Notes under the pieces: generated by a model
What the model was told of the DNA's origin: nothing
The model's input: only the letters and a program-made list of their open reading frames with translations
The model's database searches: none
NCBI GenBank assembly: GCA_003510435.1
Contig: DOMK01000013.1
Location: 12,135 to 76,134 of the forward strand
DNA length: 64,000 nt
Direction: 5' to 3'
Origin: Candidatus Magasanikiibacteriota bacterium
GTDB taxonomy: Bacteria; Patescibacteriota; Patescibacteriia; Magasanikbacterales; UBA922
Translations under genes and position numbers: made by a program
In this document: positions 4,175 to 64,000 of the stretch, piece by piece
How the letters are laid out: each line of letters begins with the position of its first letter
Position numbering within the stretch: the stretch's first letter is position 1

Positions 4175-4545
4175 ACGTCCAAAATCAATTATCAAGTGAA
4201 AAAGCCAAAGCCATTGCCTTTAAAAAAGGACAACAAATTAGTTTGAAACAACAACAGACTGGTTTGTGGCAAGAAAAATTTGATATTGATGAACAACTAG
4301 AATATTATAAAAATAAATTAATGATTAATATAGAAAATAGACAAGTAGAGATGGTAGATAATAATTTAAAAAAACTATTAAGACTGCGCGCTAGACAAAC
4401 TGCTCTTAATATATCAGAAATAATAGGAGAAGATAAAGAAAAAAATACCCAACTTTTAAAAGAAGAAACCGAAAAATTTTACAGGGATTGTTTACTTCTC
4501 GGTATTACTTTAGATAAAATAATTGGCGAAGACAATATTATATGA
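4171..4545 (+). CDS. hypothetical coiled-coil protein, translationally coupled to clpC
   Basis: 124-aa ORF whose ATG overlaps the clpC stop (ATGA) and whose stop overlaps the next ATG. K/E-rich and helical-looking; no recognisable domain. Confidence 0.4.
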   Translation: MNVQNQLSSEKAKAIAFKKGQQISLKQQQTGLWQEKFDIDEQLEYYKNKLMINIENRQVEMVDNNLKKLLRLRARQTALNISEIIGEDKEKNTQLLKEETEKFYRDCLLLGITLDKIIGEDNII

Positions 4546-9535: not shown

Positions 9536-12136
9536 CTACTCCAAATGTACTCCATCTTCCCAATCCCTCACTTTACTTACAAGTGAAGGATTTTTTTTGA
9601 AGTCAATTCCTCGTGCCAAATCACGTGATAATTTTATCAAATCCATATCCTGCATGGTGGCGAGTTTAAAAGGTGGTAGACCACTCTGGCTTGTGCCATA
9701 AACTTCACCCGGGCCACGAGTTTGGAGATCATACTCAGCAATTTTAAAACCATCAGTATTTTGAGAAAAAAATTGCAATCGTGCCAAAGATTTTTCATTG
9801 TCAGTGTCAGTAAATAAAAAACAATATGATTGATGTAAAGCTCTACCCACCCGACCACGGAATTGATGGAGCTGGGCCAAGCCAAACCTGTCTGCGCCTT
9901 CTATCATCATCACGACAGCATTAGGAATATTTACTCCCACTTCTACGACTGATGTGGAAACTAGTATATCTATTTTTCCACTCGCAAAATCAGCCATAGT
10001 GTTTTCTTTTTCATTTGGCTTTAATTTGCCATGTAAATAACCAACACGTAAATCTTTAAATATCTCCTCAGATAATTTTTTATATTCACTCATTACACTT
10101 TTTTTATCTAAGGAGTAAGGAATAAGGAGTAAGGAATTATTATCAACAAAATCATCATCACTTTTTCCTTTTTCCTTTTTCCTTTTTCCTTCATCAATCA
10201 ACGGACATATCACAAACACCTGTCTCCCCTGTTTAACTTGTGAACGAATAAAATCATAGGCCTTGTTTCTATTTTCACTATCTACCACTCTAGTATCAAT
10301 TGCTTTTCTACCCACTGGCATTTCATTAATAATAGATAAATCCAAATCACCATACAAAGTAAGAGCAAAGGATCTGGGAATCGGGGTCGCAGTCATAGAC
10401 AACAAGTGAGGCCTCATTGCTGACTGACGCAGACTAGACGCAGACTCATTATTACCACGGGCAATATCATAAACAATTCTTTGAATATCCACGCTCTCGT
10501 GAGAAAAATTTATTAACAAAGCCAACTTATACAGTGATCCTTTTAAATATGTCCAAACCTGTCTATTTTCTCTACTACCAACAAACGGAAGGGCTTTTAA
10601 TTCAATGATAATTTTATCTTCAACCACAAAATCTGGACGATAAATTCCTATTTTTTTATTTTCATATTTTATATCTAATACTTTTTCTTTTTCAAATTTT
10701 ATTCCTTCTTTTTTAAATTCCTCTTCCAATGCATTTTGATAAATTACTTCTTTATGTCCTAAACCTAAATTCTTTTTAACATTAAAAATACATCCTCTTA
10801 TTTTGTAAGTCAAATCTTTATATAAAAATCCACTTTTACTTTCCTTCTCCTGTTGTTCTTCCTCTTCTGCGTCGTCTGCGTAAGTCTGCGTAAGTCTGCG
10901 TCGTTGTTCTACTCCGAATCGATGTTGTTCATCTATAATTACTAAACCTAAATTTTTAAACTGTACTTTTTCTGATAATAGAGCGTGGGTTCCAATAATC
11001 AAGTTTATTTGCCCAGTTTTAATTTGTTTAAGTAAATCTTTTTTAATCAAAATACTAGAAGATCGGTGATCACTGATCACTGATTGAGAACGTGTCAACA
11101 GCGCTATTTTAACTTTATCTTCCAACAGCTTTGTCAGCGAATCAAAATGTTGCACGGCCAATATCTCGGTCGGCGCCATTATCACTGCTTGATAATTATT
11201 CAAAACTGTATTATAAAGCGCCATCGCTGCCACGACAGTTTTTCCACTTCCCACATCACCTTCTAACAATCGATTCATAGGTTCATTTTTTTCCAAATCA
11301 CGCAAAATATCCCAAGCCGACACTTTTTGGGCTTTGGTAAGCTGAAAAGGTAAAGAACTAACAAACTCTTTTATTTTTTCTTGCTGAAATTTTATTTCCC
11401 AAGCTTTTGATCGTTTCAAAGATTGACGAATCATTTCCGCGCGTAATTGTAAAATAAATAGTTCTCCAAATTTCAAACGCTTTTTTGCTTGATTTAAGTC
11501 TATTTCATCTATTGGAAAATGGATACCACGCACCGCTTCGGCCAGATAAATCAAATCTGCTTTTTCTAAAATTTCATCTGGTATCCATTCTTTTAGTAAA
11601 TCATGAGTCAAATAAATTATTTGACTAACTAAAAACCTTAATTGTTTATTAGTAACTCCAGTCGTGAGATGATAAATTGGGACAATCCTGGCAGTATGGG
11701 TAGTGTTTTTTTCTCCCAAAGCTTTTTGTTTGGTTTCTTTTTCATAAGACGGCGATGCCATTTGTTTGCCTAGTTTTCCAATTGATAATTTGCCTGATAG
11801 ATAAACTGTATCACCAGGTTTAAAATTCCGAGTAATAAAAGGCTGGCCAAACCAAACAATTTTTAATTTTCCAGTTTCATCATAAACAATCGCCTCTGTC
11901 ATAATTGTTCGTCTTTTAAAAATCCGCCGATTGGAAATAATCTCTATTTTCGCTTTAATTGTCACTTCTTCCCCTACTTCCAAATCAGCAATATTCTTGG
12001 TACTACTATAATCTTGATAGCGAAAAGGTAAATAAAACAACAAATCCTGAATAGTATTTATACCAAGATTTTTTAAATGCCTTTCCATCTTTTTGGCAAT
12101 ATGGTTGATTTGTCCAATAAGTGTGTCTAATTGCAT
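9536..12136 (-). CDS. recG: ATP-dependent DNA helicase RecG carrying an in-frame PD-(D/E)XK (GxxExxY-type) domain insertion
   Basis: 866 aa. Walker A GSGKT, DEQH box, MTATPIPR motif III and an N-terminal wedge region. About 165 extra aa lie between DEQH and motif III. Confidence 0.85.
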   Translation of the reverse strand: MQLDTLIGQINHIAKKMERHLKNLGINTIQDLLFYLPFRYQDYSSTKNIADLEVGEEVTIKAKIEIISNRRIFKRRTIMTEAIVYDETGKLKIVWFGQPFITRNFKPGDTVYLSGKLSIGKLGKQMASPSYEKETKQKALGEKNTTHTARIVPIYHLTTGVTNKQLRFLVSQIIYLTHDLLKEWIPDEILEKADLIYLAEAVRGIHFPIDEIDLNQAKKRLKFGELFILQLRAEMIRQSLKRSKAWEIKFQQEKIKEFVSSLPFQLTKAQKVSAWDILRDLEKNEPMNRLLEGDVGSGKTVVAAMALYNTVLNNYQAVIMAPTEILAVQHFDSLTKLLEDKVKIALLTRSQSVISDHRSSSILIKKDLLKQIKTGQINLIIGTHALLSEKVQFKNLGLVIIDEQHRFGVEQRRRLTQTYADDAEEEEQQEKESKSGFLYKDLTYKIRGCIFNVKKNLGLGHKEVIYQNALEEEFKKEGIKFEKEKVLDIKYENKKIGIYRPDFVVEDKIIIELKALPFVGSRENRQVWTYLKGSLYKLALLINFSHESVDIQRIVYDIARGNNESASSLRQSAMRPHLLSMTATPIPRSFALTLYGDLDLSIINEMPVGRKAIDTRVVDSENRNKAYDFIRSQVKQGRQVFVICPLIDEGKRKKEKGKSDDDFVDNNSLLLIPYSLDKKSVMSEYKKLSEEIFKDLRVGYLHGKLKPNEKENTMADFASGKIDILVSTSVVEVGVNIPNAVVMMIEGADRFGLAQLHQFRGRVGRALHQSYCFLFTDTDNEKSLARLQFFSQNTDGFKIAEYDLQTRGPGEVYGTSQSGLPPFKLATMQDMDLIKLSRDLARGIDFKKNPSLVSKVRDWEDGVHLE

Positions 12137-13123: not shown

Positions 13124-13272
13124 ATGACTAAAAGGTCTGACCTTCCCGATGTAAAATCGGGACGCTCTATAACCTCCGCCAAAGGCGGATCAGCCTATGG
13201 CTGAAACTGCCTGTCCGTCCGAAGTCCTCCGTAGCTTTAGCGAAGGAGGACGAAGGCGGAAGCTACAGATCC

Positions 13273-16245: not shown

Positions 16246-16647
16246 ATGAATAATACTGGAGAAAAATTAATTTATCCGGATTTATCTTATAAAATAAATG
16301 GAATCCTCTTTGCCACCCATAATGAATTAGGCCCCTATGCCAGAGAAAAACAAATTGGTGATGTAATAGAAAAATTATTAAAAGAACAAGAAATACCCTA
16401 CCTCAGAGAATGTCAAATTGGCAATAGCGGAAATGTATTGGACTTTATTATAGATAATAAAATTATTCTTGAACTAAAATCAAAACGTTTTATAATAAGA
16501 GCAGATTATGAACAAACACAAAGGTATCTGCAAGCCACCCAGCTTAAACTTGCGATCTTAGTCAATTTTAGGACACAATATCTTAAACCAATCAGGATAG
16601 TAAAAATAGATACTCAATTTAAAGAAAAATTCATAAAAAAATATTAG
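16246..16647 (+). CDS. PD-(D/E)XK nuclease-like protein of the GxxExxY type; paralogue of the recG insert
   Basis: 133 aa with a D..ELK core (DFIIDNKIILELK). It aligns along its length with the domain inserted in RecG (for example YKINGILF~YKIRGCIF and LAILVNF~LALLINF). It is bracketed by inverted repeats. Confidence 0.55.
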   Translation: MNNTGEKLIYPDLSYKINGILFATHNELGPYAREKQIGDVIEKLLKEQEIPYLRECQIGNSGNVLDFIIDNKIILELKSKRFIIRADYEQTQRYLQATQLKLAILVNFRTQYLKPIRIVKIDTQFKEKFIKKY

Positions 16648-25991: not shown

Positions 25992-26198
25992 ATTTTTTAC
26001 TAATCCCGAACCCGCCGTAGTCCGTCAGCTGACGGACGAAGGTGGGGAGGGATCCCTTTTCTATGAATCAAAGGCTGGATTACACCCAAACCTTCGTACC
26101 AGTCGAAAGCGAGATCTCTCCACTCGGAGTTAAATTTATTAATTAATTATTCTATGAAAGTTTTATTATTATTTGGCGTCATGATGACACGGAAAAGG

Positions 26199-27027: not shown

Positions 27028-27170
27028 GTATCCACAAAAGATATGCCCAGATGCCTGCCTGCCGACGAGGCAGGGCGGAACTGGTACCATGAACCACAAG
27101 GATTCATGACCATACACCCCACGTGGTGCATGGGACGCACAGTATTATTTACAAGAACACAACCAAATAT

Positions 27171-27257
27171 GCCCAGATGGCGGAACTGGTAGACGCACTG
27201 GACTCAAAATCCAGCGGTCGCAAGACCATGAGGGTTCGATTCCCTCTTTGGGCACCA
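27171..27257 (+). tRNA. tRNA-Leu (anticodon CAA), class II with a long variable arm
   Basis: 87 nt ending in an encoded CCA. Anticodon loop CTCAAAA, long extra arm CGGTCGCAAGACCAT, T-loop TTCGATT. The 3' end lies 7 nt before the next ATG. Confidence 0.8.
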
Positions 27258-36380: not shown

Positions 36381-36561
36381 ATAGCATTGATTTAAACAGA
36401 TTAAAACTGATTCAGACAAAAAATTTACCACAAAATCTCTGTGTAATTCTGTCTAAAACAATGCTTATATCTTAGCAAAAACTAACCGATTTGGCAAGCA
36501 AAAAACACACCAATTTTGATGTGCTTTTGAGTCGTCCCGAAGGCGCAGACGACCTTCGGGT

Positions 36562-36771: not shown

Positions 36772-36873
36772 GTTGTTCTCCAAATCTATGTTTATTTTAT
36801 TATACACCCACAAAATTTTTATGCAACAAAAAAACACACTAATTTTAATGTGTTCACCATTTCCGTGTTCTCC

Positions 36874-41799: not shown

Positions 41800-41828
41800 T
41801 TGACAAAACTACTTTTCTGTGATATAAT
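41800..41828 (+). promoter_or_regulatory. consensus sigma70 promoter TTGACA-N17-TATAAT (mini-cassette 1)
   Basis: ttgaca aaactacttttctgtga tataat. An AGGAGG RBS at 41901-41906 lies 7 nt before the ATG at 41914. Confidence 0.6.
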
Positions 41829-41913
41829 ATTTTGTTAAAAAACAGTTGAAAAACTAGATTTATTTGGCTAAATATAGACAAATTTGTCCGGTCTTTCAAC
41901 AGGAGGAAACGCC

Positions 41914-42084
41914 ATGGAATTAATCCTGGCAATAATCCTCGGCCTGATTGGGTTTGCCATCCTGAAGCTGATTCTTCGCACCGCTCTGTTCGGTGTAAAG
42001 ATCGGCTGTGGGTTGCTCACCCTCGCCATAATACTCGCGATCGTGTCGGGCCTGTGGCTGAAAGCCGGGGAGGGGTTCGTGTGA
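41914..42084 (+). CDS. GC-rich 56-aa hydrophobic peptide with two predicted TM helices (mini-cassette 1)
   Basis: MELILAIILGLIGFAILKLILRTALFGVKIGCGLLTLAIILAIVSGLWLKAGEGFV. Strong RBS. The stop codon sits in the loop of the hairpin gggttcg-tgtgaa-cgaaccc. Codon usage is GC-rich, unlike neighbouring genes. Confidence 0.5.
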   Translation: MELILAIILGLIGFAILKLILRTALFGVKIGCGLLTLAIILAIVSGLWLKAGEGFV

Positions 42085-42131
42085 ACGAACCCGCCCATTA
42101 TTAATTTTATATTTTAAAATTAATATAGGAT

Positions 42132-42160
42132 AAAAAATTCTGTTTTACACAGAATTTTTT
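42132..42160. terminator. bidirectional terminator aaaaaa-ttctg-ttttaca-cagaa-tttttt
   Basis: Hairpin flanked by A- and T-runs between recO (minus) and cassette 1 (plus). Confidence 0.55.
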
Positions 42161-48892: not shown

Positions 48893-48921
48893 TTGACAAA
48901 TATATATATGTGTGATAAAAT
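48893..48921 (+). promoter_or_regulatory. promoter TTGACA-N17-TAAAAT (mini-cassette 2)
   Basis: ttgaca aatatatatatgtgtga taaaat. A 5'UTR hairpin tgtgggt...acccaca follows, then RBS GGAGGG at 48976-48981 and the ATG at 48988. Confidence 0.55.
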
Positions 48922-48987
48922 AATTTGTCTTGTGGGTTACTTACACCCACAGATAGCATACAACCGATCTTACCTGGAGGGAAGAAA

Positions 48988-49176
48988 ATGCAAATTCGTT
49001 TTCTAGACATCGTTGCCTTGGTCGTTCAGGTACTAGTGGTCCTAGGTGGTTTGTTACTCACAATACTCAGTGAGACCGTGTGGGATCTGTCGGTTGGAAT
49101 CGCGACAACCTACAGCGGAGTACGGGCGATAAAAGGCATCTTCAAAGAAATGAGGACGCCTCCACCAGCCGATTAA
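48988..49176 (+). CDS. GC-rich 62-aa hydrophobic peptide (mini-cassette 2)
   Basis: MQIRFLDIVALVVQVLVVLGGLLLTILSETVWDLSVGIATTYSGVRAIKGIFKEMRTPPPAD. One long hydrophobic span. GC-rich codons. Confidence 0.5.
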   Translation: MQIRFLDIVALVVQVLVVLGGLLLTILSETVWDLSVGIATTYSGVRAIKGIFKEMRTPPPAD

Positions 49177-49256
49177 GTGAGGGGGCAGTCAGTTCCAAGC
49201 CCCCCAGAGCAATAAAACATTTATTTTTCTGGGGGACTGATTGCCTTAATAATAAA

Positions 49257-49286
49257 ACCAGCTGTTTTTAAACGGCTGGTTTTTTT
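49257..49286 (+). terminator. intrinsic terminator accagc-N12-gctggt plus a T7 run
   Basis: Downstream of the cassette-2 ORF. Preceded by G/C-tract hairpins (gggggc...gccccc). Confidence 0.6.
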
Positions 49287-49319
49287 GTTTTGTGTTATGT
49301 GTTTTGTGACTCGTGTCGA

Positions 49320-61433: not shown

Positions 61434-62621
61434 TTAGTTGATAATCTTGGTTACAACACCAGAAGCGACTGTTCTACCACCCTCGCGGATAGCAAAACGG
61501 ACTTTTTCTTCCATGGCAACTGGTACGATAAGCTTAATTTTTAGATTAAGAGTATCACCAGGCATTACCATTTCAGTACCTTCTGGCAAAGTGACTTCAC
61601 CAGTCACATCGGTAGTACGGATATAAAATTGTGGCTTATAACCATTGAAAAATGGTTTATGACGGCCACCTTCTTCTTTGGTAAGAGTATAAACTTCAGC
61701 TTCAAACTCTGTATGAGGAGTAATCGAACCAGTTTTAGCCAAAACCATACCACGTTCAACATCTTCTTTCTTTGTACCACGAAGCAAAATACCAGCATTG
61801 TCACCAGCCTCACCTTGGTTAAGAGATTTGTTAAACATTTCTACGCCTGTAACGGTAGTTTTGCTAGTTTCTGGTCTAATACCAACGATTTGAACCTCGT
61901 CACCAATCTTGACAATACCTCTTTCAATACGACCAGTTACTACAGTACCACGGCCTTCAATTGAGAAAACGTCTTCAATTGGCATCAAGAAATCCTTGTC
62001 CAAATCACGTTGTGGCTGAGGAATGTATTCATCCAAAGTGTTCAAAAGTTTCATAATGGCTTCACTGTATTCACCATTTGGATCTTCTAGAGCTTTTAGA
62101 GCTGAACCACGGATAATTGGAGTAGTATCTCCAGGGAAATCATATTTCTTTAGTAAATCTTTGATTTCTTCTTCTACCAAGTCAATCAATTCTGGATCTG
62201 TCACTTGGTCAACCTTATTTAAGAAAACAATGATATAAGGCACACCTACCTGGCGAGCCAACAAGATGTGTTCGCGAGTCTGAGGCATAGGACCATCAGC
62301 AGCAGACACTACCAAAATAGCACCGTCCATTTGAGCAGCACCAGTAATCATGTTCTTGACATAATCAGCATGGCCTGGACAATCAACGTGAGCATAGTGA
62401 CGTTTTTCGGTTGCATACTCCACATGAGCTGTGGCAATAGTAATACCACGAGCTTTTTCTTCTGGAGCAGAATCGATTTCGTCAACGCTTTTGGTTTGAG
62501 CGATCAAACCTCTAGCTGCAGCTACCTTCAAAATAGCAGCTGTAAGTGTAGTTTTACCATGATCAACGTGACCAATAGTACCTACGTTTAAGTGTGGCTT
62601 GGACCTATCAAAGTCTACCAT
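61434..62621 (-). CDS. tuf: elongation factor Tu
   Basis: 395 aa with [17 protein letters not shown] and NKVD motifs. Confidence 0.95.
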
Positions 62622-62750
62622 ACTTCTAAAATTTACCGCACTGTCTCCGAGTGGTCAGGACAGATTTTTAATCCAGCGGACTTGATTATAATTTTAGGCT
62701 ATATTTAGCCAAATTTTTGATTAACAAAAATGCGTACTTTTACGCGTGAT

Positions 62751-62780
62751 AATTATATACAAATCTTAAGTATAAGTCAA
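62751..62780 (-). promoter_or_regulatory. near-consensus promoter TTGACT-N17-TATAAT upstream of tuf
   Basis: The minus strand reads cttgact tatacttaagatttgta tataat about 130 nt upstream of the tuf ATG. A small hairpin gcgta...tacgc lies near the start site. Confidence 0.5.
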
Positions 62781-62853
62781 GGGGATATGGTGGGGACAAA
62801 CCCTAATCCTGAGCGTAGTGAAGCGAAGCGAAACGGAGCCGAAGGATCCCCTT
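62779..62853. repeat. GC-rich element with 8-bp palindromic ends (aaggggat ... atcccctt)
   Basis: About 75 nt. Its right part (cgaaggatcccctttttct) resembles 26040-26075 (cgaaggtggggagggatcccttttct). Confidence 0.5.
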
Positions 62854-63062
62854 TTTCTCTGCACTAAAAAAGTCTTAAATTTCTAATATCTAATTTCTAA
62901 TTAACCTAATAAAATACCAAATAACAAAATCCAAATTCCAAATCAATTTTAAACTTAAGATTACTAAATTAATATCCACACCACTTACATTGACAACTCT
63001 CTCTCTCTGTTTGTTAGGATAAGATGTCGTGCATCGAACGCACGAAGATGAAGGAGGCAGAC

Positions 63063-63395
63063 ATGGCGATTGTCACCATCCGGTTGTACCGGAAAAATGG
63101 CAAAAGGGGGGTTGAGGTAATCAAAAAAAAGCATTACCCGCGCCTCCAACGGTCACTTACCCGCTACATGGCCTCGGTCGATGGAGAACACCTCGCCCGC
63201 TCATGGAACACAGCAGGGCTGGCCGAGGTAGACGGTGAATGGTTTGTCACCGTCGATGGAGATGGTAAGGCCAGCATGCCGGAAAAACTGAGAAGCCATC
63301 TCTGGATCTACTATGGCTTCAACAGGTTCCTAGCAAGGATCTACAAGGGCCTAACCAGTGACGATGAACACCTTCCCGCCTTTCGCCCCTCCTAG
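63063..63395 (+). CDS. GC-rich 110-aa hypothetical soluble protein (mini-cassette 4)
   Basis: MAIVTIRLYRKNGKRGVEVIKKKHYPRL.... RBS AAGGAGG 5 nt upstream. A TTGACA box lies at 62990-62995, with a weak -10 TAGGAT after a 19-nt spacer. Very GC-rich relative to its neighbours. An alternative upstream ATG at 63024 lacks an RBS. Confidence 0.45.
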   Translation: MAIVTIRLYRKNGKRGVEVIKKKHYPRLQRSLTRYMASVDGEHLARSWNTAGLAEVDGEWFVTVDGDGKASMPEKLRSHLWIYYGFNRFLARIYKGLTSDDEHLPAFRPS

Positions 63396-63654
63396 CGTTC
63401 GCTTCGCCCCGGTTCAGGGGCAACATGCCGGTTGCGCGTCAGCCGATGACCGAGAGGGAAAACCCTCCGGGTGTCGGAGGGTGTGAGCATGCGGACAATA
63501 CAACGAAAGAATCGTCCACCACAGCTAGATTTTCATTATTGAAAATTTAACTAAGGAGTTTGGGACGATTTTTTTGTTTACACAAGCAATCCTATCCCCT
63601 AACCCCTTTCCCCTACAAAAGGGCAAGGGGAATTAAAGCCCCTCCACTTTTTAA

Positions 63655-63674
63655 GGGGAGGGGTTGGGGTGGGG
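63655..63674 (+). other. canonical G-quadruplex-forming motif GGGGAGGGGTTGGGGTGGGG, with complementary C-tracts 60 nt upstream
   Basis: Four G4 tracts separated by 1-2 nt loops, directly seen. It is preceded by cccctaacccctttcccct and cccctcc tracts that can pair with it. Confidence 0.6.
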
Positions 63675-63708
63675 TTTTATTCCTTATTCTTTATTCCTTA
63701 TTCCTTTT

Positions 63709-63927
63709 TTACACCGGTTCCTCATAAAACACCGGCTCTTCATTTTCTCCCAAAGGTTCTTCTAGCCAATCAGCTGTGTTTTCTTCAGTTTTTTTATAAG
63801 GAATATTTTGTGGTCCAGTAATACTCTCTTCACCAATGTCATTATAATTAAAATCAAAATCTGGTATGTCCTCTACTTTAATTTCATCAGCATCTTTTTT
63901 TGAAAAAAATTCACTTGGTATCTCCAC
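63709..63927 (-). CDS. acidic hypothetical protein, likely N-terminally truncated by the window edge
   Basis: D/E-rich. The open frame continues to the end of the window. Confidence 0.3.
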   Translation of the reverse strand: MEIPSEFFSKKDADEIKVEDIPDFDFNYNDIGEESITGPQNIPYKKTEENTADWLEEPLGENEEPVFYEEPV

Positions 63928-64000
63928 ACCCTCATCGTCTTCATCTTCATTATCAAAATCAAAAGAATCATCTTCATCATCTAACCAATTTGGTGTATTG

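Follow-up and report, generated by a model that had tools for sequence, protein, structure and literature searches.

A candidate moron-like expression cassette with a dinucleotide repeat in its promoter upstream of tuf in a groundwater member of Candidatus Magasanikbacteria

The phage morons of Hendrix and colleagues are reportedly transcription units of their own that have been inserted among the conserved genes of prophages. In the superintegron cassettes of Vibrio (e.g. the Vibrio cholerae repeats), conserved repeats accompany orphan cargo, and lambda sib and the Bacillus thuringiensis cry terminator are known as 3' retroregulators or stabilizers. In hifA/hifB of Haemophilus influenzae, a (TA)9–11 tract lies between the −35 and −10 elements (PMC2651432). 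Here we describe a cassette rich in guanine plus cytosine (GC) that resembles each of these systems in part and encodes a single orphan protein of 110 amino acids (aa). It lies in a 64,000-nucleotide (nt) stretch (hereafter designated the window; assembly GCA_003510435.1, contig DOMK01000013.1, positions 12,135–76,134) from an uncultured groundwater bacterium of Candidatus Magasanikbacteria (Candidate Phyla Radiation (CPR)/Patescibacteria), 369 nt upstream of tuf and with predicted transcription divergent from it. With a probability of roughly 0.55, we regard this cassette as an autonomous, horizontally exchanged single-gene expression unit, moron-like yet chromosomal, under a contingency-type promoter. 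Like a moron, it has its own predicted promoter, a single open reading frame (ORF), its own predicted intrinsic terminator and a composition unlike that of its flanks; it stands between genes that are adjacent in relatives, and the cargo of such cassettes is diverse and mostly of unknown function. Unlike a moron, it lies outside any prophage, so that it is moron-like in its working and not by definition; moreover, the cassettes have in common a conserved promoter and 5' untranslated region (5'UTR) and a 190-nt structured 3' module, and the GC contrast is extreme and directed toward GC-rich.

The cassette coincides with a GC-rich island (62992–63549, 558 bp; 53% GC), the longest and strongest compositional outlier of the window, whose overall GC content is 34.6%; the value is comparable to that of the nearby 16S ribosomal RNA (rRNA) gene (48–57%). 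The GC contents at codon positions 1/2/3 are.55/.42/.65 in the 110-aa ORF, compared with.57/.38/.29 in tuf and.54/.35/.21 in rplC. The third-position value (GC3) of 0.65 against 0.21–0.29 in host genes bears out the view of an initial annotation of this locus, made from the sequence alone, that the unit is compositionally foreign. In shuffled sequences, the frame starting at the ATG behind the Shine–Dalgarno (SD) motif stayed open for 110 codons in 0.87% of cases, and the GC3–GC2 difference of 0.225 was reached in 0.045%. The ORF interior shows only a modest excess of structure over shuffles (z = −2.1 and −2.8). Because a coding signature and an open frame occur together, and strong structure is found nowhere but in the 190 nt downstream of the stop codon, we take the ORF to be a genuine gene with a structured region behind it. 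The same signature (GC3, 0.65–0.81; GC2, 0.37–0.45) recurs in all five ORFs carried between homologous cassette ends, and such codon usage fits genes shaped in a background of 55–62% GC. A longer, 123-aa version of the ORF starting from the ATG at 63024 has no SD motif.

The cargo protein is an orphan. It has no homologue but itself among 5.8 billion clusters, and a HMMER search over 1.84 billion representatives likewise brought up no other homologue; two repeat proteins that matched it were dismissed, the common part being only a short VDGxW..DGDG motif. Neither this ORF nor seven other cassette ORFs had a match in Pfam, PHROGs, PADLOC or NCBIfam, and a PDB sequence search with the cargo protein gave only hits with E of ~0.5–1. 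A single-sequence AlphaFold model (predicted local distance difference test score, 62; predicted template modelling score, 0.55), consisting of a beta-hairpin followed by helices, had no fold match in the PDB. Among the cassette proteins, no relationship was detected by all-versus-all BLASTP, and they vary in kind (basic, acidic and membrane proteins); because of this diversity, the cargo probably covers several accessory functions and not just one.

The TTGACA, the TAGGAT after a 19-nt spacer, the hairpin, the AAGGAGG, the ATG and the 110-aa translation were all recovered where the initial annotation had placed them (Table 1). Its weak −10 element stands as to position; it is, however, preceded by a TG that had gone unremarked and that makes it an extended −10, aligning with TGtTATTAT in the sister strain and TGaTAAGGT in a second island of the same contig. 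Together, the TTGACA, the extended −10 and the SD motif constitute a predicted promoter and ribosome-binding region of the cassette's own upstream of the single ORF, conserved in three homologous cassettes; the spacer tract and the 5'UTR hairpin likewise recur in homologous cassettes, and the SD motif has an equivalent position in the sister strain, the second island and one further relative (L031). Upstream of the promoter, the part of the AT-rich tract at 62860–62958 (9664–9762 of L001, the contig continuing beyond the window end) is 89% identical to positions 4180–4278 of the sister strain (L029), which lie upstream of a different cassette at another locus, between trmD and the 16S rRNA gene, and a comparable tract is found upstream of the L031 cassette. 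This tract moves with the cassettes and not with the locus.

Table 1 Coordinates of the cassette elements and of related features in the window
Feature	Position	Strand	Remark
AT-rich tract upstream of promoter	62860-62989	+	AATTTCTAAT twice, at 62878 and 62892
−35 element TTGACA	62990-62995	+	exact start of homology between family members
(CT)6 repeat in promoter spacer	62997-63008	+	candidate slipped-strand switch
Extended −10 element TGtTAGGAT	63012-63020	+	TG 63012-63013, TAGGAT 63015-63020; after 19-nt spacer
5'UTR hairpin TCGTGC-ATCGAAC-GCACGA	63028-63046	+	TCGTGC-ACCAGAA-GCACGA in L029: stem kept, loop changed
Shine–Dalgarno motif AAGGAGG	63051-63057	+	5 nt before ATG at 63063
Cargo ORF, 110 aa, basic (isoelectric point 9.9), orphan	63063-63395	+	HBU07176.1/DEB09_03765
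Hairpin H1, GCCCC-GGTTCA-GGGGC	63406-63421	+	
Hairpin H2, long irregular stem	63424-63491	+	core GATGACCGAGAGGGAA ... CCCT.CGGG.GTCGGAGGGTG invariant in 3/3 copies
Hairpin H3, predicted compound terminator	~63502-63581	both	arms 63502-63517/63563-63578; inner AT hairpin with AAGGAG motif, then T-run
tuf	61434-62621	minus	rpsJ and rplC come next
GC-rich ORF, 69 aa	36562-36771	minus	between aspS and rsmB
GC-rich ORF, 56 aa, very hydrophobic, GC3 0.72	41914-42084	+	
GC-rich ORF, 62 aa, hydrophobic	48988-49176	+	

Directly after the stop codon follows a GC-rich module of ~190 nt, which folds far better than shuffles (sense z = −6.15, antisense z = −4.0) into three hairpins, H1–H3. An alignment fold of three copies of the module gave 53 pairs, nine of them compensatory (eight in H3), and several G–U pairs of this alignment are A–C mismatches on the opposite strand; in H2, there are one compensatory pair and several G–U pairs valid only on the plus strand. 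The invariant core of H2 suggests a sequence-specific recognition going beyond mere stability. As H3 has an A-run on its 5' side and a T-run on its 3' side, it would be able to act as a bidirectional intrinsic terminator common to the cassette and to a convergent gene encoding an acidic protein. Like lambda sib and the cry terminator, the module places long GC-rich hairpins between stop codon and terminator, where they could set the mRNA half-life; unlike in those elements, such a role is suggested here by position and fold, and there is no sequence relationship.

Comparison with the continuing contig (L001), a sister strain (L029/L030) and relatives (L031/L033, L032, L040–42 and L043) placed the cassette in a family. 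The gene order in L001 is rpsL-rpsG-fusA-trmD, a transfer RNA (tRNA)-like element, a second GC-rich island, the 16S rRNA gene, the acidic-protein gene (253 aa), the island under study and tuf. The second island (L001 5120–5810, 3.9 kb beyond the window end; 58–60% GC), in the same orientation as the window cassette, encodes an unrelated 120-aa orphan (HBU06838.1) between ends homologous to those of the window cassette, namely, a TTGACAA −35 element, (AG)4, a TGn-extended −10, an SD motif and a ~190-nt 3' module. In the sister strain, whose DNA is 92% identical over the region of the 16S rRNA and acidic-protein genes and 97% over the tuf leader, the site upstream of tuf has the same promoter, 5'UTR hairpin stem, SD motif and 3' module around an unrelated 71-aa ORF. 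In each comparison, homology begins at the −35 element and, beyond the ORF, sets in again at the stop codon. Between any two of the three 3' modules, identity is only 71–75%, against 92–97% for the flanking genes of L001 and L029; because divergence is so much greater in the modules than in their flanks, L001 and L029 carry different family members at the tuf site and not diverged orthologues. L031/L033 (Tuf, 89% identical) have at this site a 185-aa GC-rich ORF behind a promoter of the same TTGACAA-(CT)n type, followed by another, shorter 3' end (a hairpin whose loop presents AAGGAG, with a terminator behind it) resembling that of the L029 cassette at the trmD–16S site. Because one promoter type is here joined to the 3' end of the other site, promoter and 3' modules reassort. 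The ORFs on homologous ends thus number five (one each in the window, the second island and L031, and two in L029). Finally, the site between the upstream gene and tuf is empty in three further relatives (L032, L040–42 and L043).

These comparisons uphold the proposal of the initial annotation that the unit was acquired and carries its own expression signals; it is an accessory insertion, the sister strain and L031/L033 having a different cassette and three relatives an empty site. Its suggestion of a family holds for the second island and the sister strain. It fails for the four GC-rich cassettes of the window itself, among which the 5' and 3' modules, run as profiles over the 64 kb, revealed no shared ends or boundary motifs, only a common design. 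No support was obtained for a selfish or self-mobile element. For recombinases, the 30 largest ORFs of window positions 1–38 kb were compared with Pfam, and the called genes were inspected in the remainder of the window and in the upstream 10 kb of its continuation; neither set contained an integrase, a transposase or a reverse transcriptase. As to terminal inverted repeats and target site duplications, the only pair spanning the unit was a 25-nt, 72% AT-rich match, and flanking direct repeats were at chance level. The comparison with phages and plasmids advised in the initial annotation was negative: blastn and tblastn searches of the cassette against phages and plasmids gave nothing significant, protein and pattern scans of IMG/VR gave nothing, and the cassette is not in a prophage, its neighbours being the 16S rRNA gene, tuf and ribosomal-protein genes, with no phage matches. 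Homologues of native composition in core genomes, which the initial annotation had named as evidence against its proposal, are likewise missing, as no homologues exist at all. An assembly chimera was ruled out, since different samples yielded the same sequence in their ENA, JGI and Logan assemblies; the cassette junctions are identical in four independent assemblies.

The repeat in the promoter spacer distinguishes the cassette within its genome: besides (CT)6, the 64 kb contain no non-AT dinucleotide repeat of at least five units, and in the relatives, CT/AG repeats of at least five units occur only in cassette promoters. The homologous promoter of L029 has (CT)5 and a 17-nt spacer, compared with (CT)6 and 19 nt in the window. 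Moreover, L031 and L033, which are independent assemblies from different sources, are identical at 1449 of 1449 aligned nt across the region upstream of tuf except for one CT unit, a repeat-length polymorphism that has the pattern expected of slipped-strand mispairing. Since (CT)n slippage would move the spacer between 17 and 19 nt, the cassette promoter is probably phase-variable, and the window copy, with its 19-nt spacer, is probably in a low-expression state. As in contingency promoters with a simple sequence repeat (SSR) such as those of hifA/hifB (PMC2651432), a dinucleotide repeat lies between −35 and −10; within the cassette family, the unit number varies between homologous promoters (6 vs 5, giving 19 vs 17 nt), and the otherwise identical L031 and L033 are one unit apart. 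Unlike those of H. influenzae, the present promoter belongs to a free-living or episymbiotic groundwater CPR bacterium and not to a host-adapted pathogen, and its switching is predicted from sequence; in place of the surface structure or restriction-modification enzyme of contingency loci, the gene controlled would be a cytoplasmic orphan.

Presumably, then, a sigma-70-type promoter (TTGACA, (CT)6 spacer, TGn-extended −10) would start a transcript at ~63027, in which the 5' hairpin and the strong SD motif lead into the orphan ORF, and the three-hairpin 3' RNA module of 190 nt would end the transcript at the bidirectional terminator, which probably also protects the mRNA 3' end and would insulate the convergent acidic-protein gene. 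Changes in (CT)n length by slipped-strand mispairing would shift the spacer between its two lengths. The promoter/5'UTR and the 3' module form a reusable chassis around unrelated GC-rich ORFs, and whole cassettes are replaced at two intergenic hot spots, one between trmD and the 16S rRNA gene and the other between the acidic-protein gene and tuf, the likely route being homologous recombination via the conserved flanking genes or the chassis ends.

Several points weigh against this interpretation. The promoter is predicted from its sequence, and a simple consensus promoter scan misses it owing to the 19-nt spacer; promoter-like matches are not enriched in the cassette region, and statistical support was therefore taken from the ORF shuffles and from conservation. 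The repeat length is invariant in the population of the window itself, with (CT)6 in four of four assemblies, and the single-unit difference between L031 and L033 could in principle be an assembly artefact. Neither a donor, a homologue nor mobility machinery was found, so that the term horizontally exchanged refers to distribution and composition only, and this reading does not account for a GC3 of 65–80% in a 34% GC genome. As the 3' module is known in three copies only, the evidence from covariation is slight, and H2 shows a conserved sequence and no covariation. Finally, no further family members emerged. The nhmmer profiles of the 5', 3' type-1 and 3' type-2 modules gave no extra copies in the window or in the relatives' loci compared, and the invariant 3' core retrieved 14 loci from GTDB and eight from JGI metagenomes, all chance matches in GC-rich genomes without extended similarity. 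These genome and metagenome pattern scans also missed the known copies and are weak evidence; the collections scanned probably lack these genomes.

Of the alternatives, the one that survives best, unlikely as it is, holds the cassette to be an addiction or defence module whose cargo would be a toxin, an effector of abortive infection or a protein directed against phages, its costly expression being curbed by the SSR switch and by the structured 3'UTR through hok-like mRNA folding or RNase III retroregulation. Strain-specific presence, orphan cargo, a promoter of the phase-variable type, highly structured mRNA ends and the location of the cassettes beside essential, hard-to-delete genes would all suit such a module, as would the 56- and 62-aa hydrophobic peptides encoded by two other cassettes of the window, which are type I toxin-like. 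The product of the present ORF, however, does not resemble a type I toxin, being 110 aa long and hydrophilic (grand average of hydropathy, −0.53); no antisense promoter is predicted in the cassette, no complementarity between its 5' and 3' parts was apparent by eye, and the defence and protein-family databases gave no match for any cargo.

A bolder extension of the preferred reading, which we consider just as improbable as the addiction or defence module, is that Magasanikbacteria hold an undescribed gene-cassette system in which a chassis (SSR-switched promoter, 5'UTR hairpin and a structured 3' RNA/DNA module with its invariant core) carries interchangeable GC-rich orphans captured or exchanged by a dedicated mechanism at hot spots beside rRNA and translation genes. 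If so, it would represent an integron-like, phase-variable reservoir of accessory proteins in a minimal genome.

Somewhat more doubtful is an integron-like or other site-specific capture, in which the 3' module would be the recombination site (an attC-like folded strand), the promoter/5'UTR would serve as the platform for expression, and the cargo would be inserted and excised by a recombinase encoded elsewhere. Chromosomal integron cassettes with species-specific attC repeats likewise have small, mostly orphan ORFs, each followed by a conserved, strongly folding repeat of ~100–200 nt, with cargo depending on the strain. The conserved ends around unrelated ORFs, with homology running from the −35 element and again from the stop codon, are compatible with such capture, as are a 3' module whose imperfect palindrome folds strongly around an invariant core and the reassortment of two 3'-end modules and two promoter types. 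However, a regular-expression search for paired attC cores (RYYYAAC/GTTRRRY; R''/R') over the three 3' modules found none on either strand, the cassettes are single and dispersed (3.9 kb apart in the window and its continuation) without arrays, and among the genes scanned there is no attI or integrase, nor a transposase or reverse transcriptase. Unlike integron cassettes, each of them has its own predicted promoter, and folding is strongest for the sense strand as RNA, in line with the G–U pairs, which favour RNA. The chassis divergence of 25–30% also fits old paralogues exchanged whole better than recent site-specific swaps.

Still less probable is a structured non-coding RNA gene whose 110-codon frame would be a by-product of GC richness. 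GC-rich intergenic regions of AT-rich genomes are often structured RNAs, the island equals the 16S rRNA in GC content, it folds as a whole with z = −5.3 on the minus and −2.6 on the plus strand, some gene callers skip the ORF (in L001), and protein homologues are lacking. On the other hand, Rfam gave nothing at the gathering threshold in the window, at E ≤ 10 in 62600–64000 or at E ≤ 1 in the L001 copies, and the interior is unconserved between sister strains with 92–97% identical flanks. In addition, codon-position periodicity and open frames occur in five of five chassis ORFs, each just after an SD motif and in the promoter orientation, and the ORF interior folds modestly, strong structure being found only in the 3' module. 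RNase P RNA, transfer-messenger RNA (tmRNA), group I and II introns and large non-coding RNAs were dropped as candidates on negative Rfam and ARAGORN results and the lack of interior conservation. Weakest of all, a de novo or fast-evolving native gene, grown locally as GC-rich sequence with young ORFs, e.g. from intergenic hairpin elements, would account for the lack of a homologue anywhere searched, for the GC-rich hairpin elements that flank the cassette (62776–62860 and 63585–63680) and occur in relatives with empty sites, and for the tendency of GC-rich sequence to favour long ORFs, but is hardly credible given that GC3 > GC1 > GC2 with differences of 0.22–0.37 indicates a GC-rich mutational background and not hairpin arrays, that no repeat structure links the ORF interior to the flanking hairpins, and that unrelated ORFs on the same chassis in 92–97% identical strains require replacement, not drift.

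CPR/Patescibacteria have tiny genomes, and their sources of strain-level variation are poorly known; at the present locus, orphan genes with foreign codon usage turn over at fixed intergenic sites by the 16S rRNA gene, tuf and secY. If the repeat indeed switches expression, the autonomous unit preferred here would be a contingency locus in a phylum for which a literature search turned up one paper mentioning both and none that, judging from title and abstract, is devoted to such loci, and if a protein recognizes the invariant 3' core, a new mechanism of exchange or RNA control could be indicated. A lesson for annotation is that a GC-rich island between the genes of an AT-rich genome need not be a non-coding RNA; several of the present ORFs are missed by gene callers.

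The three other small GC-rich ORFs of the window to which the initial annotation alludes do exist (Table 1; GC3, 0.51–0.72). Their cassettes share with the one upstream of tuf the design of promoter, SD motif, GC-rich ORF, GC-rich 3' hairpins and terminator, and do not have the sequence of its ends. The cassette at 48893–49290, between secY and a 93-aa gene before adk, has a TTGACAA element and a TGn-extended −10 separated by a 17-nt spacer with (AT)5; a hairpin in the 5'UTR and an SD motif precede the ORF, nested GC-rich 3' hairpins and a terminator follow it, and this ORF is called as a gene in none of six assemblies. That at 41801–42160, between recO and tRNA-Asn/glnA, has a canonical TTGACA-17-TATAAT promoter and a GC hairpin right after the stop codon, then a terminator; its ORF product looks like a type I toxin. 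The ORF on the minus strand is bracketed by imperfect direct copies of a terminator-like hairpin (~36500–36524 and 36828–36853), as if the rsmB terminator had been duplicated by insertion.

The window otherwise contains housekeeping genes (the S10/spc ribosomal-protein cluster, secY, adk, recO, glnA, aspS, topA, parAB, clpB and recG). At L001 6450–7946 and its flanks, the 16S rRNA gene, which no 23S or 5S rRNA gene adjoins, lies together with trmD between fusA and tuf, breaking the usual rpsL-rpsG-fusA-tuf order, and in relatives the 16S gene is always followed by the acidic protein of ~250 aa, which is without a Pfam match. The tRNA-like sequence flanking the second island (L001 4963–5036, 74 nt) has an 8-bp acceptor stem including G3:U, a GGGGTTCGATTCCCC T-arm and an encoded CCA; it was not called by ARAGORN and scored 13 bits against the Rfam tmRNA model and 16 bits against a viral tRNA-like element. 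Directly upstream of the predicted tuf −35 element, a GC-rich palindromic element (GGGGAT ... ATCCCC, with GAAGCGAAGCGAAACG inside; 62776–62860) is also found at ~2255–2330 of L031 and in L043, conserved whether or not the relative has the cassette; a role as insulator, terminator or regulatory site of tuf is conceivable.

Short CCCC...GGGG hairpin repeats are dispersed in intergenic regions (63585–63680, 13130–13270 and 26000–26060), and relatives hold different ones at the same sites. At 27040–27170, just upstream of tRNA-Leu(CAA) (27171–27257), there is a second copy of the first ~25 nt of the tRNA (ATATGCCCAGATG..GCGGAACTGGTA), interrupted by a GC-rich hairpin, which may represent an integration remnant or a disrupted tRNA copy. 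In RecG (9536–12136, minus strand), a PD-(D/E)XK_3 nuclease domain (residues 440–553) is inserted between the DEAD and Helicase_C domains, and a free-standing 133-aa PD-(D/E)XK_3 protein is encoded 4 kb from recG at 16246–16647 on the plus strand.

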